A DNA stretch of 57,265 nucleotides from Candidatus Adlerbacteria bacterium (GCA_963796795.1 CAWCNA010000003.1:1-57265); one strand, 5' to 3'; counted from the first letter of the stretch, positions 2,699 through 53,491 are shown. Numbers and translations: made by a program. The notes: generated by a model not told the origin, from the letters alone.

Positions 2699-2810
2699 AT
2701 GTATAAGTGAGAAGAGGGGTTTTACAAGCCTCCTCTCTTAGCTACTGCTGAGATTTCGGCAGAGGCCGAATATATGGCTAGGAATATGCAGATTTGTTTT
2801 TCAGATAGAC

Positions 2811-2839
2811 GAAAACACCCGCCGATATTTCGGTGGGTG
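2811..2839 (-). terminator. rho-independent terminator candidate downstream of the 2854-3837 gene
   Basis: 10-bp stem cacccgccga/tcggtgggtg (one G-T pair) with a 4-nt loop. On the minus strand it is followed by TTTTC. Confidence 0.5.
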
Positions 2840-2853
2840 TGATGATGAATTAT

Positions 2854-3837: not shown

Positions 3838-3859
3838 TTTTTTAGTGTATTTTCTTGTG

Positions 3860-6871: not shown

Positions 6872-6902
6872 ATAAGGTATCGTGAAGTCGTTAGGGTAGT
6901 GA

Positions 6903-6975
6903 GGGCGATTAGCTCAGTTGGTAGAGCAACTCATTTACACTGAGAAGGTCACAGGTTCGAGTCCTGTATCGCCCA
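6903..6975 (+). tRNA. tRNA-Val (anticodon TAC)
   Basis: Manual cloverleaf: acceptor GGGCGAT/ATCGCCC, D arm GCTC/GAGC, anticodon stem ACTCA/TGAGA with loop TTTACAC, T arm ACAGG-TTCGAGT-CCTGT. CCA is not encoded. Confidence 0.93.
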
Positions 6976-6978
6976 CTA

Positions 6979-8310
6979 ATGACGCATCGTAACCTCTTGC
7001 AGGCCAAGGGCTGGGGAGCCCCAGAAGACGACGGGAAGGAGTCTCATCGTTCTATTCCTATTCCCAAAAGCGGCTCATGGCTGTGGAAGCTGCTCGCATT
7101 TTCGGGGCCTGGGTATTTAGTGGCGGTCGGTTATATGGACCCGGGCAACTGGGCAACCGACTTGGTCGGAGGTTCCTCCTTTGGGTACAAACTTTTGTCT
7201 ATTGTGCTGCTGTCGAGTTTGGCGGCAATTTTGTTGCAGTACTTGTCTGCAAAGCTTGGTATTGCGACGGGCCGTGATTTGGCCGAACTAACCCGTGAAA
7301 GTGTGTCCAAACCCGTCGCCATATTTTTGTGGCTGATGGCCGAAATTATGATTATCGCCTGTGACTTGGCGGAGGTGATAGGTACAGCCGTTGCACTTGA
7401 ATTGTTGTTTGGGATCCCGATTGTGTGGGGTGTCATTATCACCGCGCTCGACGTGTTCCTCCTTTTATATTTACAGAAAAAAGGTTTGCGATTGCTCGAG
7501 GCGCTTGTCGTGTGCCTTATTGCAATCATCGCTGTGTCGCTTGGTATCGACGTTATACTTTCGCATCCGCACTTCCTCGGTGTACTTTCTGGGTTTGTAC
7601 CGGCACGCGCGATATTTACTAACAAGGATATGCTGTATGTAGCCATTGGTATCATTGGGGCGACCGTGATGCCCCATAACTTATATTTGCACTCGGCACT
7701 TTCCCAAACACGGAAATATGAAGAGACAGGAGAGGGCAAAAAACAGGCGATTTTTTACACAGGTGTTGATTCAGCTATTGCACTGTCTTTTGCTTTTGTT
7801 ATTAACGCCGCAATACTTGTGCTCGCAGCATCTGCATTCAATGCGCATGGTCTTACAGAAGTCTCTGATATTTCACATGCGTACACTCTGCTCGCGCCGC
7901 TTTTGGGCGCGAGCGGGGCATCGATATTATTTGCGGTAGCGCTCTTGGCGGCGGGGCAGAACTCGACAGTGACAGGCACCATGGCCGGGCAGATAATAAT
8001 GGAAGGATTTTTACAGTTGCGCATCCAGCCGTGGTTTCGGCGTGTTATTACCCGCGGGCTCGCGATTGTCCCGGCTATTTTGTTTATCGTATATTTTGGC
8101 GCAAACAACGTAACGGAGCTGTTGGTATTTTCGCAGGTGATACTTTCGATACAGCTGCCGTTTGCAATGATTCCCCTTGTGTTATTTACCGGCAATGCAA
8201 AACGTATGGGGAGTTTCGTAAATGCCCGCTGGCTCCAGATACTTGCCGTATTTGTTGCGGTTGCTATAACGGGTTTAAACGTCTGGCTTGTGTGGAGCGT
8301 CTTCGCGTAA
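6979..8310 (+). CDS. mntH: Nramp-family divalent metal (Mn2+/Fe2+) transporter
   Basis: 443 aa, polytopic, with the DPGNWATDL signature and the MPHNLYLHS motif. The annotated ATG lies only 3 nt after tRNA-Val, so the true start may be slightly downstream. Confidence 0.9.
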   Translation: MTHRNLLQAKGWGAPEDDGKESHRSIPIPKSGSWLWKLLAFSGPGYLVAVGYMDPGNWATDLVGGSSFGYKLLSIVLLSSLAAILLQYLSAKLGIATGRDLAELTRESVSKPVAIFLWLMAEIMIIACDLAEVIGTAVALELLFGIPIVWGVIITALDVFLLLYLQKKGLRLLEALVVCLIAIIAVSLGIDVILSHPHFLGVLSGFVPARAIFTNKDMLYVAIGIIGATVMPHNLYLHSALSQTRKYEETGEGKKQAIFYTGVDSAIALSFAFVINAAILVLAASAFNAHGLTEVSDISHAYTLLAPLLGASGASILFAVALLAAGQNSTVTGTMAGQIIMEGFLQLRIQPWFRRVITRGLAIVPAILFIVYFGANNVTELLVFSQVILSIQLPFAMIPLVLFTGNAKRMGSFVNARWLQILAVFVAVAITGLNVWLVWSVFA

Positions 8311-9739: not shown

Positions 9740-10792
9740 ATGTCCATGGAAGCACTTTTTTTAATCCTACTCGGGTTTGTGCCGGCGACGCTTATTGCAC
9801 ATTTTTATGGATACTCACCGGTGTTTGTATTCTTTTTGTCAGCAGTTGCCATTATCCCACTCGCAAAATTTATTGGAGAGGGGACCGAAGAGCTTTCAGC
9901 CAGGACGAGCCCTGCGTGGGGCGGCTTGCTTGGTGCGACGTTTGGCAACGCAGTCGAACTCATTATCGGCATCTTCGCGCTCCGCGCAGGATTGTTTGAA
10001 GTAGTAAAAGCATCTATCACAGGTTCCATTATTGGAAATATTTTACTAGTGCTTGGCACCGCAATGTTGCTTGGCGGTGCGCGTCGCGAAAAGCAGGTCT
10101 TTAACAAAACGGGTGCTTTGGCTGGAGCCTCAACACTTTTTTTGGCGACTATCGCGCTTGTGATGCCTGCGATATTTTTAGAAACCGCACCGAACGTGAG
10201 TGCTTCGGTTGTTGAAAATTTAAGTATTCTCGTGTCAGTAGGCCTTGTTGTTATGTATGCGGCAGGGCTCTTCTTTTCACTCCGCACCCACAAACATTTG
10301 TTTACTGAAAACTTGGGTGAGTACAAACCTCACTGGAGCAAAACTCAAAGCATTCTCGTGCTTTTTTGTGCGACCGTCGCCACAGCGCTGATGAGCGATA
10401 TATTAGTTGGCGCTATCACTCCGCTTACACAAGAGCTACACTGGAGCCAACTCTTTATCGGCGTTATTGTCATTGCACTTATTGGAAACATTGCCGAACA
10501 CTATTCGGCCGTGATGCTCGCAGTCAAAAATAGAATGGACACCGTGCTGCAAATTTCTATCGGCTCGGCAACGCAAATTGCAATGCTCGTCGCGCCATTC
10601 TTGGTGCTCGTCTCCATACTGATACATAAACCAATGAACCTTGTGTTCAATATCTTCGAGCTTGTTTCAATTGTATTGGCTGTACTTATCGTCAACGTTA
10701 TGGTCGCCGATGGCGAGAGCAACTGGCTTGAAGGCGCACAACTTGTCGTTGCATACCTCATCGTCGCGGTCGCGTTTTTCTTCCACCCGTAG
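9740..10792 (+). CDS. Ca2+/H+ antiporter (CaCA family)
   Basis: 350 aa, polytopic, with paired alpha-repeat motifs GNAVELIIG and GNIAEH. Confidence 0.88.
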   Translation: MSMEALFLILLGFVPATLIAHFYGYSPVFVFFLSAVAIIPLAKFIGEGTEELSARTSPAWGGLLGATFGNAVELIIGIFALRAGLFEVVKASITGSIIGNILLVLGTAMLLGGARREKQVFNKTGALAGASTLFLATIALVMPAIFLETAPNVSASVVENLSILVSVGLVVMYAAGLFFSLRTHKHLFTENLGEYKPHWSKTQSILVLFCATVATALMSDILVGAITPLTQELHWSQLFIGVIVIALIGNIAEHYSAVMLAVKNRMDTVLQISIGSATQIAMLVAPFLVLVSILIHKPMNLVFNIFELVSIVLAVLIVNVMVADGESNWLEGAQLVVAYLIVAVAFFFHP

Positions 10793-10889
10793 CCTGCGAG
10801 GGTTCCATCCATAAGTTGTCCTATTGGTTTCTGCTTTTATCCACAAACCAAAGTATTTACTTTTATATTGAACAGCACATACTACATGT

Positions 10890-11378
10890 ATGGCCTTAGT
10901 ACGCTCGTGCATAATTTGTAAAAAGAAATTTAATACAAAACCGTATTTTGTAGAACGCGGTGCGGGGAAATATTGCTCCGCGACCTGTCATCATCAGGGG
11001 TTACGGAAAGGAAAGTTGTTAGCATGTTTTATTTGCAAGAAAGAAACATATAAATCCCTTAAAGCGTTGAAGAGCTCCAAAAGTAAAAAGTTTTTTTGTA
11101 GCAAGTCGTGCCAAACTACTTGGAGGAACTCTGAATTTATTGGCTCAAAACACGCAAATTGGGTAGAAGGTTTGTATGCTTATAGAAGTGTTCTCACCAG
11201 GCATGGGGTTCCTGCGATATGCAGGCGGTGCAAAATTACTGATAAAAGAATGTTGGCAGTTCATCATATAGATCAAAATCGAAAGAATAATAAGGTTGAA
11301 AATCTTACCTGGCTTTGTCATAACTGCCACCATCTAATCCACAGACATCCGGAAGAGAGAAAGAAGATACACGTTTAG
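10890..11378 (+). CDS. HNH endonuclease with N-terminal Cys-rich zinc-ribbon repeats
   Basis: HHIDQNRKNNKVENLTWLCHNCHHLIH, plus two CxxC...CxxxCH units. AT-rich codon usage. Confidence 0.8.
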   Translation: MALVRSCIICKKKFNTKPYFVERGAGKYCSATCHHQGLRKGKLLACFICKKETYKSLKALKSSKSKKFFCSKSCQTTWRNSEFIGSKHANWVEGLYAYRSVLTRHGVPAICRRCKITDKRMLAVHHIDQNRKNNKVENLTWLCHNCHHLIHRHPEERKKIHV

Positions 11379-11414
11379 CTAAATGTGTGCTATAAAAACA
11401 GCGTTCGCTTATAT

Positions 11415-11487
11415 GGTGCCCATGGTGTAACGGTTAACACTCAAGTTTGTGGAACTTGCAATGAGAGTTCGATTCTCTCTGGGCACC
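11415..11487 (+). tRNA. tRNA-His (anticodon GTG) with encoded G-1
   Basis: G(-1)+GTGCCCA pairs with TGGGCAC+C73. Anticodon stem CAAGT/ACTTG with loop TTGTGGA. T arm GAGAG-TTCGATT-CTCTC. Confidence 0.93.
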
Positions 11488-11513
11488 CACGGTTTTCAGT
11501 CCTATTTAGGCTT

Positions 11514-11654
11514 GTGAGCAAGGCATCCGTATTCAGAGATGAAGCAAATAATAACACTCACTCTCTTTTTCACATCGCTACAAAAAAAGAGCTTGAAGAC
11601 GCAGATGTGTCTTTAATCTCGGCGCTCATCAATAGTATCAACGAGTCAATCTAG
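11514..11654 (+). CDS. possible small ORF (46 aa, GTG start) coupled to the next gene
   Basis: The open frame after the tRNA ends 3 nt before the next ATG. The C-terminal text KKELEDADVSLISALINSINESI looks protein-like. There is no homology support. Confidence 0.2.
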   Translation: MSKASVFRDEANNNTHSLFHIATKKELEDADVSLISALINSINESI

Positions 11655-11657
11655 GTT

Positions 11658-12194
11658 ATGAACAGGGAACAATTCAAAATTTGGGAAAAGCAAAAAAGAC
11701 GTGAATATGAACTAGAACTTGAAAAATTACAAGAAAACTTTGCTGCGCGTGGTCTAGCATATTCTGGTATACGTAATAGAGCCGAAGCTGATCTAAAAAC
11801 AAAATATGAAGATGAAATTGAATTTAAACGGTTAAGTATTGAAAATAATATGGCGGATGACTTTGAAAAAATGAGTGAAGATGAACTTAATGCAATCGTT
11901 AGAAGGAATGAAAACTCATATGTACCAACGAGCAGATTTAATCACGCGAAGAATGAGCTCGAGATCCGTCATAGGAAAAAAATGGAAGAAATAGCCTCAA
12001 GAGGTTCAGGTTTCAGTCTTGTGGCAGGCGATATTAAAAACAGCACTATAAGTGGCAATACGGTAAATGCTTTTAATACCCATGTAAATGCAGAAAAAGA
12101 AAGTGTTTGGAGTAAATTTTTCTGGATATTTATAATTGGAATAGTTGTTATAGTTGTCGGAGGATTGTTGTTGAAATATGTATTTGGTGTTTAA
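11658..12194 (+). CDS. tail-anchored coiled-coil protein, unknown function
   Basis: 178 aa. Charged helical N-terminal region and a single C-terminal TM segment (FFWIFIIGIVVIVVGGLLL). Confidence 0.6.
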   Translation: MNREQFKIWEKQKRREYELELEKLQENFAARGLAYSGIRNRAEADLKTKYEDEIEFKRLSIENNMADDFEKMSEDELNAIVRRNENSYVPTSRFNHAKNELEIRHRKKMEEIASRGSGFSLVAGDIKNSTISGNTVNAFNTHVNAEKESVWSKFFWIFIIGIVVIVVGGLLLKYVFGV

Positions 12195-12241
12195 AATTTT
12201 TAGATTAAAAAGATTCAAGTCTGCAACATCCCAACAACACA

Positions 12242-12838
12242 ATGAAAAATCTAATTCCAAAAGACAGTCGTTATCTCCCGATGGTTCAGCAACAATGGTG
12301 CTGTGCACCTGCGTGTATCTCCATGGTTATGTATAAGCACAAACTCCCGCTTCTGCCTCAAGAAGTGCTTGGGTATCACTTTGGTCTAACTGTCCCACCT
12401 AAAGCTCAAAATCTGTTTTGGGCACCTCGAAAAGGGAAAATGCCAAAGTCCGGCTGGGGCACGCAGATTGGTTTAGGCAAAAAAGAATTTGATACTACCG
12501 CAGTGTTTAAGAAACTGAAGATTCAACTTCAGATGACGTATCACTGCAGCAAAGATTTTACACAAGAAAGCTTGCTTGATTTTTTACAAAAGATTGAGAA
12601 AAAGAATGGCGACGCACTTTTGTGTTTTGATGCAGGAGTGTTGGCTGGTACGAAGTATCGAGGTGGCCATGTCTGTGTATTTGACCGAGTGGATTCAAAG
12701 AAACAAACTGTCCGTCTTATAGACCCATCACAAAATCAACCAAAATGGAGAGAAGTAAAACTGTCTGCTTTGTATAAGGCAATGATGTACCACTGGGACA
12801 AAAGCGGAGGAGTATGGGAGTTTTCTAAACTTAAATAA
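12242..12838 (+). CDS. papain-fold cysteine peptidase-like protein (C39-like)
   Basis: Candidate catalytic Cys in QQQWCCAPACISMVMY, and His/Asp in YRGGHVCVFDRVD...VRLIDP. The pattern resembles the Peptidase_C39-like family. Assignment is from motifs only. Confidence 0.5.
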   Translation: MKNLIPKDSRYLPMVQQQWCCAPACISMVMYKHKLPLLPQEVLGYHFGLTVPPKAQNLFWAPRKGKMPKSGWGTQIGLGKKEFDTTAVFKKLKIQLQMTYHCSKDFTQESLLDFLQKIEKKNGDALLCFDAGVLAGTKYRGGHVCVFDRVDSKKQTVRLIDPSQNQPKWREVKLSALYKAMMYHWDKSGGVWEFSKLK

Positions 12839-12841
12839 CTT

Positions 12842-13327
12842 ATGGATACACAAAAAACACCAGAAGAATATTATAAGTCTCTCCCAAAAAAGTATATGGG
12901 CGCTGGAGCGCTTTTGTTTAATGAAGAGAGTAAATTTCTGATAGTAAAACCGACCTACAAACCTGGATGGGAAATTCCAGGAGGCATAGTTGAAGCGGAA
13001 GAAGCACCTGCCGACGCCGCAGTTCGAGAGATACAGGAAGAGATAGGACTTGAACTAAAGAATCCTACGCTGCTTTCCCTTCAGTATGTGCCCAATATAG
13101 ACAGCAAAGGAGATCGCCTTTTGTTTATATTTGATGGGGGAACTCTCAGCCAAGAACAAATAGACTTAATACATCTGCCTGTTACAGAACTTAGTGAATA
13201 TAAATTTATTTCAGAAACCGAAGTGCCGAGCTTCTTTGAAGACAAGAAGAACTTTCAAGATAGAATTTTAGCAGCGGTACAAGCTAAAAAACAGAACACG
13301 TTCTTTTATTTAGAGGCTAAAGAATAA
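12842..13327 (+). CDS. Nudix hydrolase
   Basis: Nudix box GGIVEAEEAPADAAVREIQEEIGLE. Confidence 0.85.
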   Translation: MDTQKTPEEYYKSLPKKYMGAGALLFNEESKFLIVKPTYKPGWEIPGGIVEAEEAPADAAVREIQEEIGLELKNPTLLSLQYVPNIDSKGDRLLFIFDGGTLSQEQIDLIHLPVTELSEYKFISETEVPSFFEDKKNFQDRILAAVQAKKQNTFFYLEAKE

Positions 13328-13347
13328 AGGTTTAACTCTAAATAAAT

Positions 13348-13806
13348 ATGAGAACCGTAAAGAAAGACATAGTATCGGCAGTTATTTACTCCAAAGAGGG
13401 GAAAATCTTTCAGGGGATGAAAGCATCCGATCCACATAATATTTATCACGACTGTTGGCATATACCTGGCGGAGGAGTTGAGCCTGGAGAAGAGTATCTT
13501 CACGCTCTTACTAGAGAATGCGAAGAAGAAATTGGTTTAGATATTAGTATCTATCCCATTGAATTGCTGGATGATAAGGGCTTTGGCAAAGGGGAGAAAA
13601 CCTTGCGTGATACAGGAGAGAGGGTTATCCAAGACATGCATTTTATTACCTACAAAATCACCATAGACAAATCTGCCACAGAAGTACCCATTCATCTTGC
13701 TGATAATGAATTTGTAAAATATGAATGGACTGAGCCAAAAGAACTAAAGAATAGAAAATTGACACCTCCGTCGGTAGAGCTATTTACCCGATTAGGTTAT
13801 CTTTAA
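13348..13806 (+). CDS. Nudix hydrolase
   Basis: Nudix box GGGVEPGEEYLHALTRECEEEIGLD. Confidence 0.85.
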   Translation: MRTVKKDIVSAVIYSKEGKIFQGMKASDPHNIYHDCWHIPGGGVEPGEEYLHALTRECEEEIGLDISIYPIELLDDKGFGKGEKTLRDTGERVIQDMHFITYKITIDKSATEVPIHLADNEFVKYEWTEPKELKNRKLTPPSVELFTRLGYL

Positions 13807-13809
13807 GAT

Positions 13810-14463
13810 ATGAAACTTCTGCTCACGTCAGGTGGCCTGACAAACAAATCAATAGAAAAGGCGCTTTTTGATTTGGTTGGTAAAAAAGCAGAAGACACTT
13901 CCTTAGTTTTCATTCCTACGGCCTCGAATGTTGAGACGGAGGATAAAGATTGGCTTATCAATGACCTTATCAATATTCGTAAACAAGGTTTTAAGGCAGT
14001 TCATATTACGGATATTTCTGCAGTTCCAGAAGATATTTGGCGACCACAGATGGAAGCAGCGGATGTTTTGTTTTTTGAAGGTGGAAACACATATCACCTT
14101 ATGCATTGGATAACTAAGTCTGGTTTAATAAATATCCTGCCTGAACTCTTGAAGACAAAGGTATATGTCGGACTAAGCGCTGGAAGTATGGTAACTAGTC
14201 CAGACTTGGCATTACGACTATCCCAATTGATATATGGTGATGAAATTGAAAAAGAGAATATGGTTGGATTGAACTACACCGATTTTTATTTCCTGCCTCA
14301 TCTCTACTCTCCCTATTTCCCAATACGTAATGCGGACAGACTTGAAGAAGTTGCCAAAACATTTTCTAAGAAGATTTATGCACTAGACGACCAGTCTGCA
14401 CTGAAGATTGTCGATGGGAAGGTTGAGATGGTCAGTGAGGGGAAGTATCTGGAATTCAACTAA
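13810..14463 (+). CDS. peptidase S51 (dipeptidase E-like) family protein
   Basis: FFEGGNTYHLMHW and VYVGLSAGSMV (nucleophile Ser) are typical of PepE/S51. Confidence 0.8.
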   Translation: MKLLLTSGGLTNKSIEKALFDLVGKKAEDTSLVFIPTASNVETEDKDWLINDLINIRKQGFKAVHITDISAVPEDIWRPQMEAADVLFFEGGNTYHLMHWITKSGLINILPELLKTKVYVGLSAGSMVTSPDLALRLSQLIYGDEIEKENMVGLNYTDFYFLPHLYSPYFPIRNADRLEEVAKTFSKKIYALDDQSALKIVDGKVEMVSEGKYLEFN

Positions 14464-19796: not shown

Positions 19797-20294
19797 CTAT
19801 CTTTCTAACGTAACCCAGGAATATGCGAGCCCGTTGTGCTCGCGTTTTTCTTTTGAAATTTCTTTAGTAAATTCTTGTTCGTATTCAGGGAAAAATGTAT
19901 CCGCTTCTCTTGTATCGTCAATAAGGGTGAGATAGAGGCGGTCAACAAAGGGAAGTGCTTGTTTATATAAGTCAGCACCGCCGCCGATATGTATTTCTTC
20001 TTGATCTAATTCGCGAGCTTTTTCTAATCCTTCTTCAAGGGAATGAACAACTGAAACTCCTTCATATTTCCAATCTGCATCACGAGTTACAACAATATTA
20101 GTACGGCCAGGGAGTGGTTTGCCCAATATTGAAATAATAGATTCGAATGTTTTACGGCCCATGATTATTGGGTGTCCAAGTGTGAGTGCCTTAAAGCGCT
20201 TCATGTCTTCTGGAATATGCCACAAAAGCTCGTTGTTTTTCCCGAGCTCGCCGTTTTTGCCAATGGCTACAACTATAGCAACGCGTGCTGCCAT
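19797..20294 (-). CDS. folA: dihydrofolate reductase
   Basis: VAIVVAIGKNGELGKNNELLWHIPEDMKRFKALTLGHPIIMGRKTFESI. Confidence 0.9.
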   Translation of the reverse strand: MAARVAIVVAIGKNGELGKNNELLWHIPEDMKRFKALTLGHPIIMGRKTFESIISILGKPLPGRTNIVVTRDADWKYEGVSVVHSLEEGLEKARELDQEEIHIGGGADLYKQALPFVDRLYLTLIDDTREADTFFPEYEQEFTKEISKEKREHNGLAYSWVTLER

Positions 20295-20295
20295 A

Positions 20296-20931
20296 TTATT
20301 GTTCGGCAGGAAAATCTTTTTTAAGCTTTTTTATATCCCCGTTGAAAATGAACTTCATTTCGGATGCTTTTTCTTTTTTGCCTTTCTCGACAACATCCTT
20401 TTGATGCCAGCGGCTTTTTCGTGGAGTCACTTTATGAGCAAGCTCTTCAAATACAATCTGGCAGAAGCGCTCACCCGGGTGGAGTTGGATAACTTGGGAG
20501 CGAGTGTTGTTACGGATAGGCAGTGTAAGAGGGCCCTCGTATCCGGAGTCGATAATGCCAGTCAAATCTACCGACAACCCTTTTCTGTTTACTGACGAGC
20601 GGGGATAGAGCACGGCCATCAGGTCATCAGGCACTTTTATTGTTTCAAACGTCGAGACTAATACATATTCTTCAGGGAGAAGGTCAAAATGCTGTCCCTG
20701 CTCAAGCTCGACAATGTCGAAATATTCCGGCCCATGGTCGCGGAGAGGGTCGATAGCTATAGCTTCGCGGCCGCGGTCGGTCAAACGCCATGCTTTTGGC
20801 ACAAGGAAAGTGAACCCGAGTCGGAGATCAACGGCATGCGCCTGCAATTGAAAACTATCGAGGCTCGGCGAAAATACGATGTTTTTTTCTCGAACGCGCT
20901 TTAAAATTTCTTCTTTCGTAAGTACTGACAT
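20296..20931 (-). CDS. dcd: dCTP deaminase family protein (dCTP deaminase/dUTPase fold)
   Basis: AVDLRLG..., YPRSSVNRKGLSVDLTGIIDSGYEGPLTLPIRNN, and FCQIVF. Confidence 0.85.
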   Translation of the reverse strand: MSVLTKEEILKRVREKNIVFSPSLDSFQLQAHAVDLRLGFTFLVPKAWRLTDRGREAIAIDPLRDHGPEYFDIVELEQGQHFDLLPEEYVLVSTFETIKVPDDLMAVLYPRSSVNRKGLSVDLTGIIDSGYEGPLTLPIRNNTRSQVIQLHPGERFCQIVFEELAHKVTPRKSRWHQKDVVEKGKKEKASEMKFIFNGDIKKLKKDFPAEQ

Positions 20932-20935
20932 GTTT

Positions 20936-21772
20936 TTATAAGACTACCTGCAAACCTTTAATTGCTTCAAGTGGATTGTACTGTGACATTATATTTTCGA
21001 CGATCTCATCGAGCAGTTTTTTGTCTTTTTTCTCTGCACGATCAAATGCATTTTTTGGAAGGGTTACATGAATGGCCGGATGTTTGTCATGGCGTCCTAG
21101 TATCTCTTTTGCCGCTTCGTACTGATTGTCGTATATATGTGCGTTTGAAACGGAGTGAGAATATATTCCGGGTTTTACTCCAAGTTTCTGTGCAAGGATT
21201 ATCTGTAACAACGCGAACCCTGCAACGTCCGCCGGGAGTCCCAATATAACGTCATTTGACCGCACTATATTGTGCAAGTGCAACCTTCCTCCAATGATGT
21301 TTACAGTAAATGTATATGGGCAGGGAACATTCTTTTTCTTAAACAAACTTAACCCGTCGGTTGCCGGGTCCCAGGTCACGACAACGCCGTGGCGTGAACT
21401 CGGTTCTTTTTTGAGAAGATCAACAAGAAGCCCGAGCTGGTCGCGGCCGAAATGTTTTCTCCATCGATATCCGTAGGCAACCGTAACTACATCGGCAGGA
21501 TTCGTAAAATTATCCCAAATTTTTGTGTAGTCCCGCAAAAAATCTGCTGGCTTGCGCACGCCTGCAATAAACCAAATCTGTTCAGCGACGAACATTTTTA
21601 TAGGAATTTTGCGTAATGTGAGAATGGGAAATCCTTCTTTTTCTATATCTATAGAGAAGTGCATGCCGGGAATCGCGGCAGTCTCGTGCTTTGTCCGCTC
21701 CGACATTTCCCGGATACCTTTGTCGACGATAGTGCCCAATAATTCCTGGTAGATAGAGTCGAATCGGGCCAT
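20936..21772 (-). CDS. thyA: thymidylate synthase (ThyA) family enzyme with Asp at the uracil-selecting Asn position
   Basis: Ungapped match to E. coli ThyA across the active site: PC(151)PYTF..., R171-S-N-D174, LGLPAD(182)V, and AH(212)IY. Asp182 is codon GAC at 21229-21227. Confidence 0.85.
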   Translation of the reverse strand: MARFDSIYQELLGTIVDKGIREMSERTKHETAAIPGMHFSIDIEKEGFPILTLRKIPIKMFVAEQIWFIAGVRKPADFLRDYTKIWDNFTNPADVVTVAYGYRWRKHFGRDQLGLLVDLLKKEPSSRHGVVVTWDPATDGLSLFKKKNVPCPYTFTVNIIGGRLHLHNIVRSNDVILGLPADVAGFALLQIILAQKLGVKPGIYSHSVSNAHIYDNQYEAAKEILGRHDKHPAIHVTLPKNAFDRAEKKDKKLLDEIVENIMSQYNPLEAIKGLQVVL

Positions 21773-21843
21773 GGCGCAATTATAGGGGCGGGGGAGGTAA
21801 GCAGCAAATAGGCATCTTTTGTCTCGGGTGGTATAAATTTAGG

Positions 21844-22332
21844 GTGACTGAAATCACCTATCCCTACCTACCGAAAGGCCGCACTATTAAGTACGTGCCG
21901 GAAAACAATCCCTTCATACAAGAAGCAAAAGAATATTCGCGAACTCATTCGCTTGACCGCTCTGTTCCGACAGGTTCTGTCATAGTAAAAGACGGTGTTG
22001 TGATTGGCCGTGGCGCCAACGGCAGCGACTATCACAAAACTCACGAGTGTGAGCGCGTAAAACAAAAAATCCCGACGGGTCAAGGGTATGAGCTGTGCGA
22101 AGGATGCCACCCAAAGAATCACAGCGAACCTAATGCGATTGCCGATGCACAGGCGCATGGGCATGATACGACAGGTGCGGGTCTTTATTTATATGGACAT
22201 TGGTGGGCATGCGAGCCGTGCTGGAATGCGATTATTGCTGCAGGAATTAAAAATGTCTTTCTTATGGAAGGAAGCGAGCGCATCTACAATCGAGAGCATC
22301 CAGACAACAGGGTCGGAAAGGATTTTGCATGA
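21844..22332 (+). CDS. dCMP deaminase (ComEB/cytidylate deaminase zinc-binding family)
   Basis: HSEPNAI (the HxE motif) and ACEPCWNAI (PCxxC). GTG start. Confidence 0.85.
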   Translation: MTEITYPYLPKGRTIKYVPENNPFIQEAKEYSRTHSLDRSVPTGSVIVKDGVVIGRGANGSDYHKTHECERVKQKIPTGQGYELCEGCHPKNHSEPNAIADAQAHGHDTTGAGLYLYGHWWACEPCWNAIIAAGIKNVFLMEGSERIYNREHPDNRVGKDFA

Positions 22333-23024
22333 TGAAAGGAAGACTCATAGTTATTGACGGCTCGGACGGTACGGGGAAGGCAACCCAGACCAAGCTTTTA
22401 GTTGATCGTTTGCGGAAAGAAAATATCCCCGTCGAGACGCTCGATTTCCCGCAGTATGAGAGCAACCTGTTCGGTAAACTTATAGGCGAATGTTTGTCGG
22501 GCCTGCACGGTGATTTTATAGGCCTCGATCCAAAGATTGCCTCGGTACTGTATGCCGCTGACCGATTTGAGTCGAAGCAAAAAATTGAAAAATGGTTAGC
22601 TGCGGGGAAAGTGGTGGTGCTCGACCGCTATGTGAGTGCGAACCAAATGCATCAAGGAGGAAAGATTCGCGGCACCAAAGAGCGCAAGCAATTTTTACAA
22701 TGGCTCGACCAGATGGAGCACGGCGTGTTTGGCTTGCCGCGTCCCGACATTATTTTGTATCTGGCGCTGCCTGTTGAAATAACCCTCAAACTACTTCAAG
22801 AAAAACAGCTGGCCGCGAAGAAAAAATATCTAACAAAGGGAACGCGCGACCAGGCCGAAAGCAACACTAAACATCTGTTCGACTCCCAACAGAGTGCCCT
22901 AAAACTCATTCAAGCTTCAAATGCCTGGAAAAAGATCATCTGCTCGAATAAGAAGGGTATCCTTCCTCGCGAGGATATACACGAGAAAATATGGTCAATT
23001 GTGGAGCCTCTGGCATCGCGGTAA
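22329..23024 (+). CDS. tmk: thymidylate (dTMP) kinase
   Basis: P-loop VIDGSDGTGKATQ and the DRY motif LDRYVSANQ. The start overlaps the upstream stop (ATGA). Confidence 0.9.
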   Translation: MMKGRLIVIDGSDGTGKATQTKLLVDRLRKENIPVETLDFPQYESNLFGKLIGECLSGLHGDFIGLDPKIASVLYAADRFESKQKIEKWLAAGKVVVLDRYVSANQMHQGGKIRGTKERKQFLQWLDQMEHGVFGLPRPDIILYLALPVEITLKLLQEKQLAAKKKYLTKGTRDQAESNTKHLFDSQQSALKLIQASNAWKKIICSNKKGILPREDIHEKIWSIVEPLASR

Positions 23025-23033
23025 TATTTATAT

Positions 23034-23369
23034 ATGGATTTTGACGAGTACCAGAAACAGGCTTCCCAAACAGCCACCTTTAATAAGGACGATGCGGACT
23101 ATATCCGGATGTACTTATCGATGGGGCTCGCAGGAGAGAGCGGCGAAGTGGTTGAAAAAGTTAAGCATGTCATAAGAGATGTAAACGGGGTTCTTACTGA
23201 TGAAAAACGTGAAGAGATAAAAAAAGAAATCGGCGATGTATTATGGTACTTGTCGCAGCTTTCGAGAGTGCTCGGCATTTCGTTTCAAGAAGCGGCTGAG
23301 TTAAATATCACAAAAATCTTGGACCGCCAGAAACGGGGCGTTCTCAAAAGCGAAGGAGATAATCGATAA
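23034..23369 (+). CDS. MazG-like all-alpha nucleoside triphosphate pyrophosphohydrolase
   Basis: 111 aa. GLAGESGEVVEK and EIGDVLWYLSQL (the EExxE/D metal motifs of the MazG family). Confidence 0.8.
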   Translation: MDFDEYQKQASQTATFNKDDADYIRMYLSMGLAGESGEVVEKVKHVIRDVNGVLTDEKREEIKKEIGDVLWYLSQLSRVLGISFQEAAELNITKILDRQKRGVLKSEGDNR

Positions 23370-23426
23370 CTTTTTATGATCTAAGTTTCCAGACATTACT
23401 GATTTACTAACCTCACAGTATTTACT

Positions 23427-24695
23427 ATGGATTCTTACGATCACATCAAAAAACAAGACGCAGAATTATACGACGTCATTCAGGGCGAAGAGACACGCGA
23501 GAGGGAAGGGCTCGAACTCATTCCGTCCGAAAACTATGTTTCAAAAGCAGTGCGCGAAGCTCAAGGGTCAATTCTTACTAACAAATATTCGGAAGGCTAC
23601 CCGGGCAAGCGATACTACGGCGGGCAGGAGTTTACTGATAAAGCTGAGATACTTGCGATTGAACGCGCGAAGCAACTCTTCGGTGCAAAATTTGCAAACG
23701 TACAACCGCACTCAGGGGCCTCGGCAAACATGGGGTTGTATTTTGCATTGCTCCAGCCGGGTGACACGGTGCTTGGCATGGACCTCAGTCACGGCGGCCA
23801 CTTAACGCACGGACATCCGGTTACCTACATCACAAAGTTCTTCAACTTCGTCCGTTATAAAATGAAGAACACCGATACTGGTGAAATTGATTACGAAGAC
23901 ATGCGCCGTGTTGCGCTTGAGACAAAGCCGAAGATTGTACTTGGTGGATATTCTGCCTACTCGCGCGAGCTTGATTACGCAAAAATGGCAGACATTGCCA
24001 AAGAGGTTGGAGCATATTCAGTAATGGATGCCGCACACATCGCGGGGCTTATTGCGGGCGGCGCCTGCAAAAATCCATTCGACTATGGCTTTGATGTTAT
24101 TACTTCAACAACGCACAAAACATTACGCGGTCCGCGCGGAGGGCTTATTCTCACGCGCGACAGCGAAGAAATTGCAAAGAAAATAGACAAGGCAGTATTC
24201 CCCGGCATGCAGGGCGGTCCATTGATGCACGTGATTGCAGGAAAAGCAGTCGCATTCGGCGAAGCATTGCACCCGTCATTTAAAACCTATACTGCGCAGA
24301 TATTGAGAAACGCGAAAGCAATGGAAGAAGTCTTCCGCGCAAGAAATATCCGTATGCTCGGTGGTGGTACTAGTAATCACTTGATACTCGCAGATGTATT
24401 CGGCTCGCTCGACATCCCCGGCAAAGAAGCAGAGGCAGTACTCGACACAGTTGGCATCACTCTTAACAAAAATGTTATAGCAGATGATACCCGCTCGCCC
24501 ATGGACCCTTCCGGTATCCGTTTTGGTACGCCAGCAATCACTACACGCAAATTGATGGAGAAGGAAAGTGCGCGCGTTGCTGAGCTGATGATAGACGCCC
24601 TTCAAAATCGCGCCGACCAAACAAAGTTAAACAATATTCACCAAGAGATTAAAGACCTCTGCGCGAAATTCCCCATACCGGATTCGTTCGTGTAA
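23427..24695 (+). CDS. glyA: serine hydroxymethyltransferase
   Basis: LIPSENYVS, GYPGKRYYGG, and TSTTHKTLRGPRGG (the PLP lysine). Confidence 0.95.
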   Translation: MDSYDHIKKQDAELYDVIQGEETREREGLELIPSENYVSKAVREAQGSILTNKYSEGYPGKRYYGGQEFTDKAEILAIERAKQLFGAKFANVQPHSGASANMGLYFALLQPGDTVLGMDLSHGGHLTHGHPVTYITKFFNFVRYKMKNTDTGEIDYEDMRRVALETKPKIVLGGYSAYSRELDYAKMADIAKEVGAYSVMDAAHIAGLIAGGACKNPFDYGFDVITSTTHKTLRGPRGGLILTRDSEEIAKKIDKAVFPGMQGGPLMHVIAGKAVAFGEALHPSFKTYTAQILRNAKAMEEVFRARNIRMLGGGTSNHLILADVFGSLDIPGKEAEAVLDTVGITLNKNVIADDTRSPMDPSGIRFGTPAITTRKLMEKESARVAELMIDALQNRADQTKLNNIHQEIKDLCAKFPIPDSFV

Positions 24696-27996: not shown

Positions 27997-28656
27997 ATGC
28001 CAGTTAGGAATGAAGAAAGGCTCGCGGCACTTGAGCAGTGGATCACTGCTAATACCCCTGATCTGCCAATTTTGATACCGATAAGCGGAGGTACTGATAG
28101 TGCACTATGTTTCTGGTTATACAACAAAATTTTTGGGACGCGAGTCATCGGTGTATATATTGGCACTACATTGCGTGCCCGAGAATGGTTTGAGAGCATT
28201 GGTACAGTACGAGTTATTGAAGCACCGCCCGACATGTTCCACGATCCAGAGCTTGTGCGTTGGGCACAACTGCTCAAAATTGCGCTCGATGACAAACGTT
28301 TGCTCGTAGGCGCGCGTAATAAGACTGAGCATATACTAGGCACATTTAGTTTGGCGAGCAGGGTCGCGTCGCACCTGCCACTTACTGGACTCTGGAAAAG
28401 TGAGGTGCTCGCGTTATGTGAGCACATCGGTGTTCCTGCGGAAGTAATCGAATCGAGCCGAAAGGCGGATGTCGCGTGTGGCAGGCCTGACGAGCTGGTA
28501 CAAATTAGCGTTGAGTTGGTCGATGATTTTTTACGGACAAAAATTGGAGAACTTCCTATACACGACAAGGTTCCTACTTTAGAAGATGTTGCGTATCTAG
28601 AGCGCCTGTATCAACAACAGGGTTTTAAGCGAACCCTGCCTCTTCTGCCTCAATAG
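27997..28656 (+). CDS. PP-loop ATP pyrophosphatase, NAD+ synthetase (NadE)-like
   Basis: PP-loop PISGGTDSAL. NadE-like GARNKTEHILGTF...LPLTGLWKSEV. Confidence 0.6.
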   Translation: MPVRNEERLAALEQWITANTPDLPILIPISGGTDSALCFWLYNKIFGTRVIGVYIGTTLRAREWFESIGTVRVIEAPPDMFHDPELVRWAQLLKIALDDKRLLVGARNKTEHILGTFSLASRVASHLPLTGLWKSEVLALCEHIGVPAEVIESSRKADVACGRPDELVQISVELVDDFLRTKIGELPIHDKVPTLEDVAYLERLYQQQGFKRTLPLLPQ

Positions 28657-29405: not shown

Positions 29406-32400
29406 ATGGACGATTTGAAGCAGGGTGGCGAAGAGCTGCACCCGGAGATAGTGAATAAGCCCAAAAGTGCCTTTGCTGTTAGAGAGGAAAAGACCTTGGC
29501 ATTTTGGCAGGACAAAGAAATTTTTCAAAAATCACTGGATAAACACGCTCCGAAGGGGGATTTTGTGTTTTATGATGGTCCACCGTTTGCGAACGGTCTC
29601 CCGCACTACGGGCACTTACTGCAAAGCTCCATTAAGGATGCAATTCCGCGCTACCGCACTATGCAGGGCTACCGCGTGCCTCGCCGCTGGGGATGGGATT
29701 GTCATGGCCTGCCGGTTGAAAACCTTGTTGAAAAAGAAATGGGTTTTAAAGGCAAACGCGACATCGAAGACTTTGGCATTGCGAATTTCAACAAGGCTGC
29801 GCGCACGAGCATCATGAAGGACGTTGCCGACTGGAAACGCATCATCCCGCGCATCGGCCGCTGGGCCGACATGGAGAACGACTACAAGACCATGGACGGC
29901 ACGTACACCGAGTCGGTCTGGTGGGCGTTTAAGAATTTGCACAGCCGCGGCCTTATTTACGAAGGTTTCAAGGGTATGCATTTTTGCCCGCGCTGCGGCA
30001 CGACGCTTTCAAATAATGAAGTGGCGCAAGGTTACATGGATATTGATGATATCGCCGTCACCGTAAAATTTCCGCTTGTCGATGAGCCAGAAACTTCTAT
30101 TCTTATTTGGACCACCACACCGTGGACACTGCCGGGGAACACCGCTGCCGCGGTAAATGCAGATGCAACGTATGTTAAAGTCCGTACCAATGAGGGGTTT
30201 GTAATCGTTCTAAAAGAATTAGCAACAAAAGTATTGGGAGAAGATATAAAAGTTTTTAGCGAGATGCTCGGTAAAGATTTGGTTGGTAAGCGATACGAGC
30301 CACCCTTTTCGTATTTTAAAGATACGCTCCATAAACATAAAACTCATGCATATAAAATCTATGCAGCGCCGTACGTAACACTTGAGGATGGTACGGGCAT
30401 CGTGCATTTGGCACCTGGGTACGGTGCAGAAGATTTGATCTTCGCGCAGAAAGAAAAAATTCCGCTTATCCAGCACGTCACTGACGAGGGTAAATTTATT
30501 TCAACCGTCGTAGATTTTGCCGGCTTGCCTGTGAAGCCAAAAGGCCGCCATATGGAGACGGATGCAAAAATTGTTGAGCATCTGCAGAATCGGGGGTTGC
30601 TGTTCCATCAGGAAAAAATAAATCACTCCTATCCTCATTGCTGGCGCTGCGACACGCCACTTTTAAACTGGGCGTCGAACTCATGGTTTGTAAGCGTTGC
30701 AAAAGTAAAAAAAGATTTGCTTGCACAAAATAAAAAAGTTTCCTGGGTGCCAAAGAGCACGGGGGAGGGTCGATTCCAGAAAGGCCTTGAAACTGCACCG
30801 GATTGGGCGATTTCGCGCAGCCGTTATTGGGGCGCACCATTGCCCGTGTGGCGCCACAGCAAAACCAAAGAAATAAAAGTCGTGGGCTCAGTCGACGAAC
30901 TCCTTACAATGGTGCGCCGCTCGGGCAACACATATTTTGTTATGCGTCATGGTGAATCGAATTCAAATGTCATCGACACAGAAGATGTTGCTGGCGACCC
31001 TGACAATCATCTAACTGAAAAAGGTAAAAAGGAGGTCATGGTTGCAGCGCGAGCGCTTTCATCAAAAAAAATAGATTTGATTGTTACTTCGCCGTTTTTG
31101 CGCACTAAAGAAACGGCACAGCTGCTGGCGCAAGAGTTTGGCCTGTCGGATTCTGCAATTATGACAGACACCCGTTTGGGTGAGGTCGAGCATGTAACGC
31201 CCGACCTATGCCGTGCCGTGGGAGAATTTATTTTTGAAATAGAACGTCGTTACAGTGGTAAAAATGTACTCGTTGTTTCTCATGGAGGAACTATGTGGGC
31301 ATTGCAACAAGTAGCGGCTCGCCAGTCGAGGCTTGGATTTAATCGCACCGCCATGCTTGGTAATGCGGAGTGGGCAGAATTACCTTTTGTTCCGTATCCG
31401 CACAACGACGACTACGAACTCGATCTGCATCGCCCATATATAGATGATATTCCACTAGGAGATTCGCTCGCGGGGGAGTGGAAGCGTGTGCCGGATGTGT
31501 TTGACTGCTGGTTTGAGTCGGGCTCGATGCCGTACGCGTCGAACCATTATCCGTTCAAGAAAAATAATTTCAATCCAAAAAAGGTATTTGGATTTATGCC
31601 TAAAGGCTACCCAGCCGACTTTATTGCCGAGGCCGTCGACCAAACTCGCGGTTGGTTTTATTCGCTGATTGTTTTGGGAACGGCGCTCTTTGGAAAGTCG
31701 CCATATAAGAATGTCATTACGACCGGGTTTATTAATGCAAGCGATGGTAAAAAAATGAGCAAGCGGCTCAAAAACTATCCCGACCCCTTGGAGTTAATAG
31801 ACAAATACGGCGTCGATTCCTTGAGGTATTACATGCTGTCGTCGCAATTGGTGCGTGGCGAAGACTTGAGCTTTAAGGAACAAGGTGTTGAAGAGGTTTC
31901 AAAAAAACTTTTGATGCGCCTCGACAACGTTGTGTCGTTTTATGAACTGTATGCAAACAGCACGCCACGTTCAAACGAAAGCACGGCTGCGCTTGACCGA
32001 TGGATCGTTTCGCGTCTTGCAGAGCTAGTACAGCAAACGACCGAAGGCTTTGAGAAATACGAACTTGATGTTGCAACCCGGCCACTTGCTGCGTTTATTG
32101 ACGACCTTTCAACGTGGTATCTGCGCCGCTCGCGTGATAGGTTTAAAAGTGATACTCAAGATAAAAAAGACGCCCTTGCCACGTTGCGTTTTACGCTGTA
32201 CATAGTTTCGCACGTCATGGCTCCAGTTATGCCATTTTTCGCAGACGAACTATTTGGCCGTATAAAAGAAGAAGGCGATGCCGAAAGCGTGCATCTTTCG
32301 AGCTGGCCTGAAGCTGGAAGTGTTGATATAGATCTAATTTCCGGGATGTCTTTTGTTCGCAGCCTTTCCACTATTGCTCTTAAACAACGAGAAGAAGCTA

Positions 32401-32760
32401 ACCTCAAAGTCCGTCAACCACTTCGAGAAATTTACTGTTATCTCTGCCGTCGGTTTGCCTTCAGATTTGCATGAGATTCTTTCAGAGGAAATCAATGTTA
32501 AAGAAATTATATTCACATTGGGTGAACAGGGGAAAGCCTCGTACGTACTCGATACAGAATTAACTTCCGAACTTAAAGAAGAGGGAATTGTGCGTGATAT
32601 TGTGCGCAAAATCCAAGGCTGGCGTAAAGAACAGAATCTCCAGATTACTGACAGAGCTTCATACGTGCTGACCGCAACAGAAGAAGAAAAGGCAGCGGTA
32701 GAAAAAAATCGCACAAAAATTATGGAACTGACAGGGTTGAATGCTTTACACATCGAATAA
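29406..32760 (+). pseudogene. ileS: isoleucine--tRNA ligase carrying an inserted histidine-phosphatase domain; one frame disruption near the 3' end as sequenced
   Basis: HIGH (PHYGH), KMSKR, CP1 editing region. The main ORF ends at 32474 (..VRQPLREIYCY..). The +1 frame continues (E)KFTVISAVGLPSDLHEILSEEINVKEI...EGIVRDIVRKIQGWRK, the IleRS C-terminus. The shift is near 32424-32433 (gagaaattt). Confidence 0.9.
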
Positions 32761-53346: not shown

Positions 53347-53382
53347 TCTAGTGAAAGTAGCGCTAGCGTAAGTTAGCTCAGC

Positions 53383-53410
53383 AAAAGCCCCCTCTCACGA
53401 GGGGGCTTTT
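53383..53410 (+). terminator. rho-independent terminator after the surface-protein gene
   Basis: aaaa-gccccctc-tcac-gagggggc-tttt. Confidence 0.8.
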
Positions 53411-53491
53411 GTGTTATGTGGGGAGAGGTTTTTATCAAAAATGAATTTGTATTTTAAAGAAATTTCACTGGCTGATTTGTATACATAAAGG

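Follow-up and report, generated by a model that had tools for sequence, protein, structure and literature searches.

Is the gene cluster at 19797-24695 of a Candidatus Adlerbacteria chromosome, which is annotated as ordinary thymidine-nucleotide synthesis, what its labels say, given that residues of its core enzymes disagree with them? The window (the whole stretch of DNA that was analysed, 57,265 nt from Candidatus Adlerbacteria bacterium, GCA_963796795.1 CAWCNA010000003.1:1-57265) contains all seven ORFs in this region, and each family was confirmed with Pfam and NCBIfam (Table 1). The answer that we favour, to which we give about an even chance, is that the cluster is a chromosomal Parcubacteria (Paceibacteria) housekeeping set that produces thymidylate by taking the usual steps in exchanged order.

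Table 1. Features of the cluster, with positions counted from the first letter of the window.
Feature	Position	Strand	Family match or length
Dihydrofolate reductase (DHFR), folA	19797..20294	-	PF00186, 176 bits, full length
Dcd-family protein without the catalytic Glu (Dcd-like), inferred dCTP (or dUTP) diphosphatase	20296..20931	-	TIGR02274, 111 bits (cutoff 92.8)
TS-family enzyme, predicted dCMP C5-methyltransferase (5-methyl-dCMP synthase, yielding dihydrofolate)	20936..21772	-	PF00303, 173 bits
Divergent intergenic region between TS operon and deaminase operon	21773..21843	.	71 nt
Divergent zinc deaminase, CDA/dCMP-deaminase superfamily	21844..22332	+	PF00383, 42 bits (cutoff 25)
dTMP kinase, tmk, accessory	22329..23024	+	PF02223, 77 bits; TIGR00041, 82.8 bits, just below cutoff
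Small MazG-type NTP pyrophosphohydrolase, accessory	23034..23369	+	PF03819, 48 bits; phrog_229 MazG-like, 113 bits
Serine hydroxymethyltransferase (SHMT), glyA, supplies 5,10-methylene-THF	23427..24695	+	PF00464, 499 bits; NF000586, 564 bits

An earlier note on this DNA had listed the seven genes with these coordinates and strands and had described them as tightly packed, and the analysis bore out both claims: the Dcd-like gene starts 4 nt past the TS stop and is followed by folA after 1 nt, whereas the deaminase and tmk genes overlap by 4 nt and are followed by gaps of 9 nt (tmk/MazG) and 57 nt (MazG/glyA). A promoter scan of the divergent intergenic region, the counterpart of which has a median length of 62 nt in 78 loci, gave no excess of sites over chance. 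The cluster is flanked by secE/nusG/rplK on one side and by argS on the other, and the same window also holds tRNA synthetases, L19 and EF-P; a location in a phage genome was rejected because of this chromosomal, housekeeping setting. A search of IMG/VR did not reveal close relatives.

The neighbourhood conservation that the earlier note had proposed as a check was found in about 80 species-level genomes for a core triad of TS, deaminase and Dcd-like genes: the deaminase gene is divergent from that of the TS, followed by the Dcd-like gene and usually by folA, with glyA nearby. The deaminase and TS genes were divergent and less than 600 nt apart in 77 of 78 related loci, and the Dcd-like gene lay directly downstream of the TS gene in 72/76; therefore, this arrangement is not due to chance. 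Among 80 loci, folA was part of the cluster in 52 and glyA in 62-64, compared to 28 for tmk and 16 for MazG, both of which are accessory. The median identity of the TS across loci (74%) was similar to that of NusG (73%) and above that of ArgS (43%), and this level, together with the conserved housekeeping synteny, suggests that the cluster behaves as essential genes do. All 80 related clusters carried an Asp-type TS, and none the Asn-type ThyA that would have spoken for ordinary thymidylate metabolism. No second TS (ThyX or Asn-type ThyA) was detected in 1.26 Mb of related loci plus the window; a second TS or thymidine salvage may exist elsewhere in the genomes.

When the TS homologue was aligned to solved ThyA structures, its sequence LGLPADVA matched LG(L/V)PFNIA, with Asp at N177 and Pro at H147 (E. 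coli numbering), in agreement with the Asp variant described before. Asn177, His147, Trp83 and Leu143 of ThyA are all replaced (by D177, P147, F83 and N143), F176 is changed to A/S/H and R127 to H, whereas the catalytic Cys146, Glu58, Tyr94, Arg166 and Asp169 are conserved and R21 is also intact. Asp177, Asn143, Asp169 and Phe83 were present in 80/80 loci and Pro147 in 78/80. Scores against NCBIfam equivalogs were far under the cutoffs (e.g. 140 vs 327), TIGR03284 being the only one passed. In published work, N177D makes these enzymes dCMP-specific, L143D/E defines hydroxymethylases and D169N 5-hydroxylases (PMC13326640; PMC8670742). By this code the TS homologue is predicted to be a dCMP methylase, giving 5-methyl-dCMP and dihydrofolate, because it combines D177 with a non-acidic N143 and D169.

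Three other identities do not fit the residues of this enzyme: ThyA (EC 2.1.1.45, dUMP to dTMP), as Asp, Pro and Phe occupy the positions of Asn177, His147 and Trp83; a T4 gp42-type dCMP hydroxymethylase, as Asn143 and a full-length tail contrast with Asp143 and the 246 aa of gp42; and a 5-hydroxy-dCMP synthase of the RB69/DLP3 type, which needs Asn169, whereas all 80 loci have Asp169. In contrast, the sequence features of an Xp12-type dCMP methyltransferase were found (Asp177, non-acidic 143, Asp169, shared indels and tree placement). The homologue is 34% identical to the TSs of phages Xp12 and PaMx74, with the same signature (N143, P147, D169, D177, F83) and common indels and motifs (YGYRWRxHFGRDQ and WDPAxDGL...KNVPCP), and in a neighbour-joining tree, calculated without support values, it was nested in an Asp-type clade that is apart from the His/Asn/Trp-type ThyA. 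Its nearest relatives beyond Parcubacteria are on phage-like contigs. In vivo, 5-methyl-dC was formed by the Xp12 enzyme and by five of seven Asp-type TSs linked to a deaminase (bioRxiv 10.1101/2024.12.05.627091). The full-length, ThyA-like C-terminal tail and the presence of DHFR and SHMT in the cluster argue for methyl rather than hydroxymethyl transfer, which supports the earlier proposal, based on these two linked genes, of a methyl transfer yielding dihydrofolate.

The second misfit concerns the gene previously labelled dcd, for which the HMM match upheld the family and the missing catalytic glutamate did not uphold the dCTP deaminase function (EC 3.5.4.13). Where solved dCTP deaminases have TLE, this protein reads TLP, its Pro being aligned to the Glu of 4xjc and 2qlp. 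This Pro, at the position of E. coli E138, recurs in 75/75 relatives, which maintain R115 and D128 (75/75) and S111 (74/75). Therefore, the two deaminases that had been regarded as redundant are not so. The protein also lacks the C-terminal motif V (RGxxGFGS/HTG), so identity as a trimeric dUTPase (Dut) was rejected as well; a genuine Dut accompanies it in 20 Parcubacteria loci, and a true Dut with motif V was seen on contig L155. It shares the fold and the RSS...R and IDxGY motifs of the Dcd/Dut-superfamily pyrophosphatases, the best solved relative being 4xjc, a bifunctional dCTP deaminase-dUTPase that has Glu instead of Pro, while the short solved Dcd-like proteins without Glu (9ln0, 8y1w) show TLM at this point. 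Unlike the solved members, it bears a 45-residue lysine-rich C-terminal extension, which is conserved up to the homologue on the phage-like contig L149, where the same triad occurs, including a Pro-type Dcd-like gene. Hogrefe et al. 2002 are said to have found that archaeal Dcd-like proteins without this Glu are dUTPases with weak dCTPase activity. We infer that the protein is a dCTP diphosphatase that would feed dCMP to the TS homologue.

The deaminase has invariant zinc ligands (H93-x-E95 and C123-x-x-C126) plus H64, C85 and C88. Its AF2 model (pLDDT 90.9) had T4 dCMP deaminase as top Foldseek match, at TM-scores of 0.4-0.5, with RibD, TadA and guanine deaminases scoring about as well as dCMP deaminases; against the ComEB model TIGR02571 it scored 30 bits (cutoff 219), and it is not close to the deaminases of Xp12 or PaMx74. 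Members of its family adjoin Asp-type TS genes on the phage-like contigs L146, L147, L149 and L151, and fusions of a deaminase (P0141) or a PRA-PH pyrophosphatase (P0162) to an Asp-type TS were also found. Among phage TS-linked deaminases, 34 of the 56 active ones preferred 5mC. The phage 5mC-selective enzymes (mSCD-B5 and relatives) are likewise annotated as dCMP deaminases, encoded beside an Asp-177 TS and proposed to convert 5-methyl-dC nucleotides into thymidine nucleotides. The likeness to our deaminase drawn here is one of annotation and gene context; mSCD-B5 needs triphosphates, and the family studied here differs by an extra invariant His/Cys cluster. By analogy, the deaminase could make dTMP (or dTTP) from a 5-methyl-dC nucleotide.

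Regarding the remaining genes, folA genes from CPR bacteria complemented an E. coli ΔfolA strain (PMC11974145). The best solved relative of Tmk is M. tuberculosis TMPK, whose thymine contacts F70, R74 and N100 align with Y, R and N. The MazG protein, which is small and YpjD-like, gave only weak matches to solved YpjD-like proteins, and a DCTPP1 type was not sustained, as no affinity to DCTPP1 could be demonstrated; dCTP, 5-methyl-dCTP or, for house-cleaning, dUTP are candidate substrates.

As residues misfit in two of the three core enzymes, dCMP is therefore probably methylated first and deaminated after, which was one of the options in the earlier note and is the best-supported reading. The Dcd-like protein, without the deaminase Glu, would split dCTP into dCMP and PPi, and the Asp-177 TS, judging by its signature and homology to Xp12, would convert dCMP and 5,10-methylene-THF into 5-methyl-dCMP and dihydrofolate. 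Gene linkage, fusion proteins and phage precedent suggest that the deaminase could then turn 5-methyl-dCMP into dTMP, or 5-methyl-dCTP into dTTP. Tmk would phosphorylate dTMP to dTDP, DHFR and SHMT would close the folate cycle, as their family assignments indicate, and MazG in the window and Dut in other genomes may clean the pools. Several points speak against this order of steps: Dut, where present (20 clusters), would provide dUMP just as it does in conventional synthesis; F176 and R127 of ThyA are replaced in the TS homologue; a second TS or thymidine salvage may exist elsewhere in the genomes; the deaminase is not close to those of Xp12 and PaMx74, and its fold match to dCMP deaminases is generic at the TM-scores given above; and the exclusion of 5-methyl-dCMP from DNA is left without explanation.

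The idea of a phage-style toolkit thus stood, with the 5-methylcytosine module found in Xanthomonas phage Xp12 and in Pseudomonas phage PaMx74 closer than the hydroxymethylcytosine kit of T-even phages to which the earlier note had referred. That module comprises a MazG/PRA-PH-like pyrophosphatase, a dCMP methylase, a deaminase and a DHFR, the last two adjoining the TS as in the Parcubacteria cluster, and thymidine formation via deamination of 5-methyl-dC nucleotides has been proposed for it (bioRxiv 10.1101/2024.12.05.627091). The Parcubacteria cluster differs in being on a bacterial chromosome in about 80 species, in having a deaminase of a different, divergent family and usually a Dcd-fold protein instead of MazG as pyrophosphatase candidate, and in the addition of SHMT and Tmk. 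The T-even kit (gp56 dCTPase, gp42 dCMP hydroxymethylase, gp1 kinase, cd, td and frd) follows a common logic of dCTP depletion, modification of dCMP by a TS homologue, and then deaminase and DHFR. T4 gp42 has Asp at position 177 like our enzyme, but Asp143, Thr147 and no C-terminal tail, and T4 carries a separate true TS, whereas the Parcubacteria cluster lacks a glucosyltransferase and a gp1-type kinase. The canonical bacterial cycle (ThyA, FolA, GlyA, and Dcd/Dut or dCMP deaminase) shares the families, the folate logic and the thyA-folA adjacency, and is set apart by the replaced TS residues and the Glu to Pro change in Dcd.

If dTMP were made conventionally by an unusual ThyA, with dUMP supplied by dCMP deaminase plus Dut or the Dcd-like protein, the Asp, Pro and Phe changes would have to be lineage drift compensated elsewhere; we consider this unlikely. 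The gene list is a textbook one (dcd, dCMP deaminase, thyA, folA, glyA, tmk, with dut in 20 loci), thyA-folA synteny is common among bacteria (PMC11974145) and the six catalytic residues of the TS are intact; however, the signature does not vary among 80 species and coincides with that of Xp12, the enzyme branches within the Asp-type clade apart from ThyA, and a Dcd-like protein without the catalytic Glu could not make dUTP. Moreover, each characterised Asp-177 enzyme of the family that is mentioned in the papers cited here acts on a cytosine nucleotide, and ThyA becomes a dCMP methylase through N177D or N229D (PMC8670742; PMC13326640).

In a genome-wide replacement, 5-methyl-dCMP would be phosphorylated and incorporated, so that, as in phage Xp12, the DNA would contain 5-methylcytosine in place of cytosine or in addition to it, and the deaminase would divert part of the pool to thymidine. 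Such a replacement seems quite improbable, as no cellular organism with full cytosine replacement is known, a dedicated 5-methyl-dCMP kinase is missing from the cluster, with Tmk keeping its thymine-binding residues, and related genomes reach up to 54-58% GC (according to record names), unlike what we would expect from elevated 5mC-to-T decay. It draws on the match to the Xp12/PaMx74 gene set (pyrophosphatase, Asp-177 TS, deaminase, DHFR), on dCTP-depleting candidates (MazG and the Dcd-like protein that lacks Glu) that parallel T4 gp56 in cytosine-replacing phages, on the TS relatives on phage-like contigs and on the invisibility of 5mC to short-read metagenomics. New C5 chemistries have arisen repeatedly in the TS superfamily (PMC13326640), so the product could also be 5-hydroxymethyl- or 5-hydroxy-dCMP, or 5-methyl-dCMP unrelated to dTMP, with the deaminase and Dcd-like protein as separate salvage. 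This is very improbable: a non-acidic 143 with Asp169 is the opposite of what marks hydroxymethylases and hydroxylases, the DHFR linkage implies folate oxidation, and the conservation of core genes in genomes of very small size points to an essential role.

If thymidylate is made by methylation before deamination, no enzyme of the cluster would be redundant and dUMP would not be an intermediate. The methylation of dCMP followed by deamination, a route so far described in phages only, would then probably operate in ultra-small Parcubacteria.

The seven open reading frames (ORFs) of the cluster lie exactly where the earlier note had placed them, and each matches its family: DHFR (folA, 176 bits), the Dcd-like protein annotated as dCTP deaminase (PF22769, 120 bits; TIGR02274, 111 bits against a cutoff of 92.8) and the thymidylate synthase (TS) homologue (173 bits) on the minus strand, and a CDA-type deaminase (42 bits), Tmk (77 bits), MazG (48 bits) and SHMT (glyA, 499 bits) on the plus strand. 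The genes of the minus-strand operon are spaced by 1 and 4 nt, the divergent gap measures 71 nt, and the plus-strand operon has a 4-nt overlap followed by spacings of 9 and 57 nt. The number of promoter-like sites (6, against 7.5 expected) was no higher than by chance, and none of the 15 terminator-like sites (5.8 expected) convincingly marked an operon boundary. The window belongs to a Parcubacteria (Paceibacteria) chromosome, the nearest TS relatives (73-95% identity) being those of Adlerbacteria, Kaiserbacteria and "Paceibacterota" genomes, and genes elsewhere in it encode ribosomal proteins, tRNA synthetases, EF-P, a sigma factor and FtsK.

When one genome per species was scanned, 235 stretches with a TS relative were obtained, and the best 80 of these loci were kept. 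The deaminase gene was divergent from the TS gene and less than 600 nt away in 77 of 78 loci, and the Dcd-like gene was the immediate downstream neighbour of TS in 72 of 76. Among the best 80 loci, folA was present in 52, glyA in 62-64, tmk in 28 and MazG in 16. Therefore, the core of the cluster consists of the deaminase, TS, the Dcd-like protein and folA, plus glyA. The genes nusG/rplK and argS border the cluster in 30-40 of the 80 loci, and median identities across loci were 74% for TS, 73% for nusG, 65% for rplK and 43% for argS. The cluster is a housekeeping locus and not a prophage, synteny ruling out a prophage or island origin.

Coordinates of the cluster and of other features in the window and in fetched loci
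Feature	Sequence	Position	Strand	Observation
N6/N4 DNA methyltransferase genes, adjacent	window	684-1457; 1417-2502	minus	
ORF, 327 aa	window	2854-3837	minus	no Pfam match
Mutator-family transposase	window	3855-5060	plus	
Low-GC segment	window	10000-14000		39-42% GC vs 45-53% elsewhere; several ORFs without Pfam match
tRNA-His	window	11416-11488		inside low-GC segment
NUDIX hydrolases, tandem	window	12842-13327; 13348-13806		inside low-GC segment
Pyrimidine/folate cluster	window	19797-24695	both	
Dcd-like gene	window	20296-20931	minus	
TS gene	window	20936-21772	minus	
NAD synthase-like ORF	window	27997-28656		only C-terminal half of profile covered
Class I tRNA synthetase	window	29406-32474		1022 aa; His_Phos_1 domain inserted at residues 511-595
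Methionyl-tRNA synthetase gene	window	37790-39227		two overlapping ORFs in different frames: 37790-38383 (HLGH motif) and 38295-39227 (KMSKT)
Two large ORFs, 812 and 745 aa	window	50908-56313		no Pfam match
Dut gene	L038	9068-9481		directly after deaminase gene
Two tandem glyA-like genes	L052	5654-8322		39% and 75% identical to window's SHMT
MazG, dATP/dGTP pyrophosphohydrolase type	L149 (phage-like)	6674-6991		dGTP_diPhyd_N, phrog_801; alongside Asp-type TS, deaminase and Pro-type Dcd-like genes

Alignment to solved ThyA structures revealed Asp at E. coli position N177 and Pro at H147 of the window TS. In the TS alignment, E58, F83, Y94, N143, C146, D169 and D177 were present in all 80 loci, and P147 in 78. 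The change N177D switches ThyA to dCMP, and positions 177 and 147 are the best separators of TSs on modified-cytosine contigs from others (PMC8670742). An acidic residue at 143 is the mark of hydroxymethylases, and Asn at 169 that of 5-hydroxy-dCMP synthases (PMC13326640). Because of its signature of D177, N143 and D169, the window TS is, by the published residue code, a dCMP methylase, and the same code rules out a hydroxymethylase or a 5-hydroxylase. Of the nearest cluster representatives (50% identity) that were aligned with this TS, 118 carry Asp and 18 Asn at position 177, and the Asp types form a single group, with the Parcubacteria clade nested within it, in a neighbour-joining tree without support values.

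The window TS also retains a ThyA-like C-terminal tail (IKGLQVVL vs IKAPVAI), which, together with the adjoining DHFR and SHMT, favours a reductive methylation yielding dihydrofolate; CPR folA genes complement an E. coli ΔfolA strain (PMC11974145). A tblastn search of the window and of Parcubacteria loci totalling 1.26 Mb, with some 20 kb for each genome, gave no match to ThyX, to a second TS or to a C5 DNA methyltransferase. The reference sequences comprised E. coli ThyA, Dcd and Dut, T. maritima ThyX, M.HhaI and human DCTD; in those of ThyA and Dcd, the catalytic residues fell at the correct numbers, and HMMER alignments to solved structures were independently concordant.

The earlier note had described the cluster as having redundant deaminases, a puzzle that disappears on alignment of the Dcd-like protein with solved dCTP deaminases, where its "TLP" occupies the site of "TLE". 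At the catalytic position, E. coli E138, 75/75 Parcubacteria relatives have Pro instead of Glu, and S111, R115 and D128 are invariant apart from one S111 changed to Ala. Therefore, the Dcd-like protein cannot be a second deaminase by the known mechanism. Nor is it just the dUTPase of the cell, as a genuine trimeric Dut is also encoded in 20 of the 80 loci, often directly after the deaminase (L007, L008, L014, L019, L022, L023, L029, L037, L038, L054, L059, L060, L063, L064, L067, L072-L074, L076 and L077). No dUTPase gene was found in the 57 kb of the window, where tmk and MazG fill that place. The Dcd-like protein might instead be a dCTP (or dUTP) diphosphatase supplying dCMP. Its AF2 model from a 30-sequence alignment was unusable (pLDDT 38.6), and a literature search with the PDB codes 9LN0 and 8Y1W yielded nothing but articles on materials science.

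Besides its zinc ligands, HxE and CxxC, the deaminase has an additional His/Cys cluster that is invariant. Its AF2 model was confident (pLDDT 90.9), and the top fold match was the T4 dCMP deaminase, with a low TM-score and with other CDA-fold enzymes scoring nearly alike. The link between this deaminase and the Asp-type TS is strong, being based on adjacency, phage-like neighbours and fusions. Homologues with 30-38% identity adjoin Asp-type TS genes on four phage-like contigs (L146, L147, L149 and L151), of which L149 also has a Dcd-like gene of the Pro type whose product ends in the same tail as that of the window, and the TS-related proteins P0141 and P0162 are fusions of an Asp-type TS with a CDA deaminase and with a PRA-PH/MazG-like pyrophosphatase, respectively. 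In the phage deaminase work, 34 of 56 active TS-linked deaminases were 5-methylcytosine (5mC)-selective. A role in thymidine nucleotide supply has been proposed for them (bioRxiv 10.1101/2024.12.05.627091). The MazG of L149 is a hint at additional editing of purine pools. Two further Asp-type TS homologues are P0155, fused to an HNH endonuclease, and P0125, which is extended at its N-terminus by 190 residues rich in Arg and Ala and is encoded on L148, a contig also bearing murD.

The phages Xp12 and PaMx74, described as replacing all cytosine by 5mC (bioRxiv 10.1101/2024.12.05.627091), encode TS homologues with a signature identical to that of the window TS and share with it indels missing from ThyA. 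According to the same preprint, 5-methyl-dC was formed in vivo by the Xp12 enzyme and by five of seven Asp-type TSs linked to a deaminase. In both phages, the step putatively assigned here to the Dcd-like protein is carried out by a MazG/PRA-PH-like gene upstream of TS. The Xp12 deaminase is not close to that of the window. In T4, gp56 performs the step proposed for the Dcd-like protein (dCTP to dCMP); T4 gp42 (246 aa), in contrast to the window TS, has D143 and T147, lacks the ThyA-like tail and falls elsewhere within the Asp-type group of the tree without support values. In IMG/VR, neither the Dcd-like protein nor the deaminase family had a match, TS relatives were at most 40% identical to the window TS and had no window-type deaminase or Dcd-like gene in their loci, and close relatives of the three core proteins were not found.

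For the accessory genes, Tmk aligned best with M. tuberculosis TMPK, with F70 changed to Tyr and R74 and N100 kept, residues that we take to be thymine contacts; the enzyme resembles an ordinary dTMP kinase. The MazG protein is small and YpjD-like.

Beside the directly observed family assignments, residue signatures, conservation, linkage, fusions and homology to the Xp12-type enzyme, the most economical reading, to which we give about an even chance, is a cytosine-first thymidylate pathway, with a distinct job for every core enzyme. The substrates, all of which we infer, would pass from dCTP to dCMP, 5-methyl-dCMP, dTMP and dTDP, and DHFR and SHMT would complete the folate cycle. The rival reading, in which an odd ThyA works in a conventional pathway, would be consistent with the gene list and with Dut but is at odds with the Asp rule and the Glu-less Dcd, and we consider it unlikely. 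The same set of enzymes would serve to make genomic 5mC, a product of the cluster that we regard as quite unlikely, and it is a long shot that 5mC takes the place of much of the genomic cytosine of Parcubacteria, or of all of it, through a chromosomal, vertically inherited Xp12-type pathway. That the TS makes another C5 product is very improbable.

Elsewhere in the window, the methyltransferase genes, the 327-aa ORF and the transposase could form a restriction-modification island (684-5060), and nucleotide pools are a possible target of the tandem NUDIX hydrolases too. The class I tRNA synthetase is probably IleRS, by its length and its editing and anticodon-binding domains, and the split of the methionyl-tRNA synthetase gene is due to a frameshift or else to an error of assembly around 38300-38380.

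A route with deamination after methylation is known or proposed in phages (bioRxiv 10.1101/2024.12.05.627091). In our literature search, neither this route nor an Asp-type TS was found described for cellular lineages, and no earlier account of an Asp-type TS or of 5mC in DNA was found for CPR bacteria. What is apparently new here is a chromosomal, lineage-wide version of the phage-type route, essential in appearance. The cluster is also relevant to the origin of phage base-modification modules, which could derive from cellular pathways or could themselves have given rise to these. If the large-scale replacement of cytosine by 5mC were true, Parcubacteria, a lineage of very great size and abundance, would be the first cells known with a wholesale non-canonical DNA base. 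If the cytosine-first reading is true, thousands of "thymidylate synthase" and "dCTP deaminase" database entries would be mis-annotated (about 2400 and 1300 clusters at 90% identity, respectively, residues being verified only in the 75-80 fetched relatives), predictions of antifolate or fluoropyrimidine sensitivity would be altered, and the deaminase family would be a large new source of the 5mC-selective deaminases sought for methylome sequencing. Methylation of dCMP followed by deamination, without a dUMP intermediate, would then be a third thymidylate route beside ThyA and ThyX, so far unrecognised in cells and extending across a whole bacterial class.
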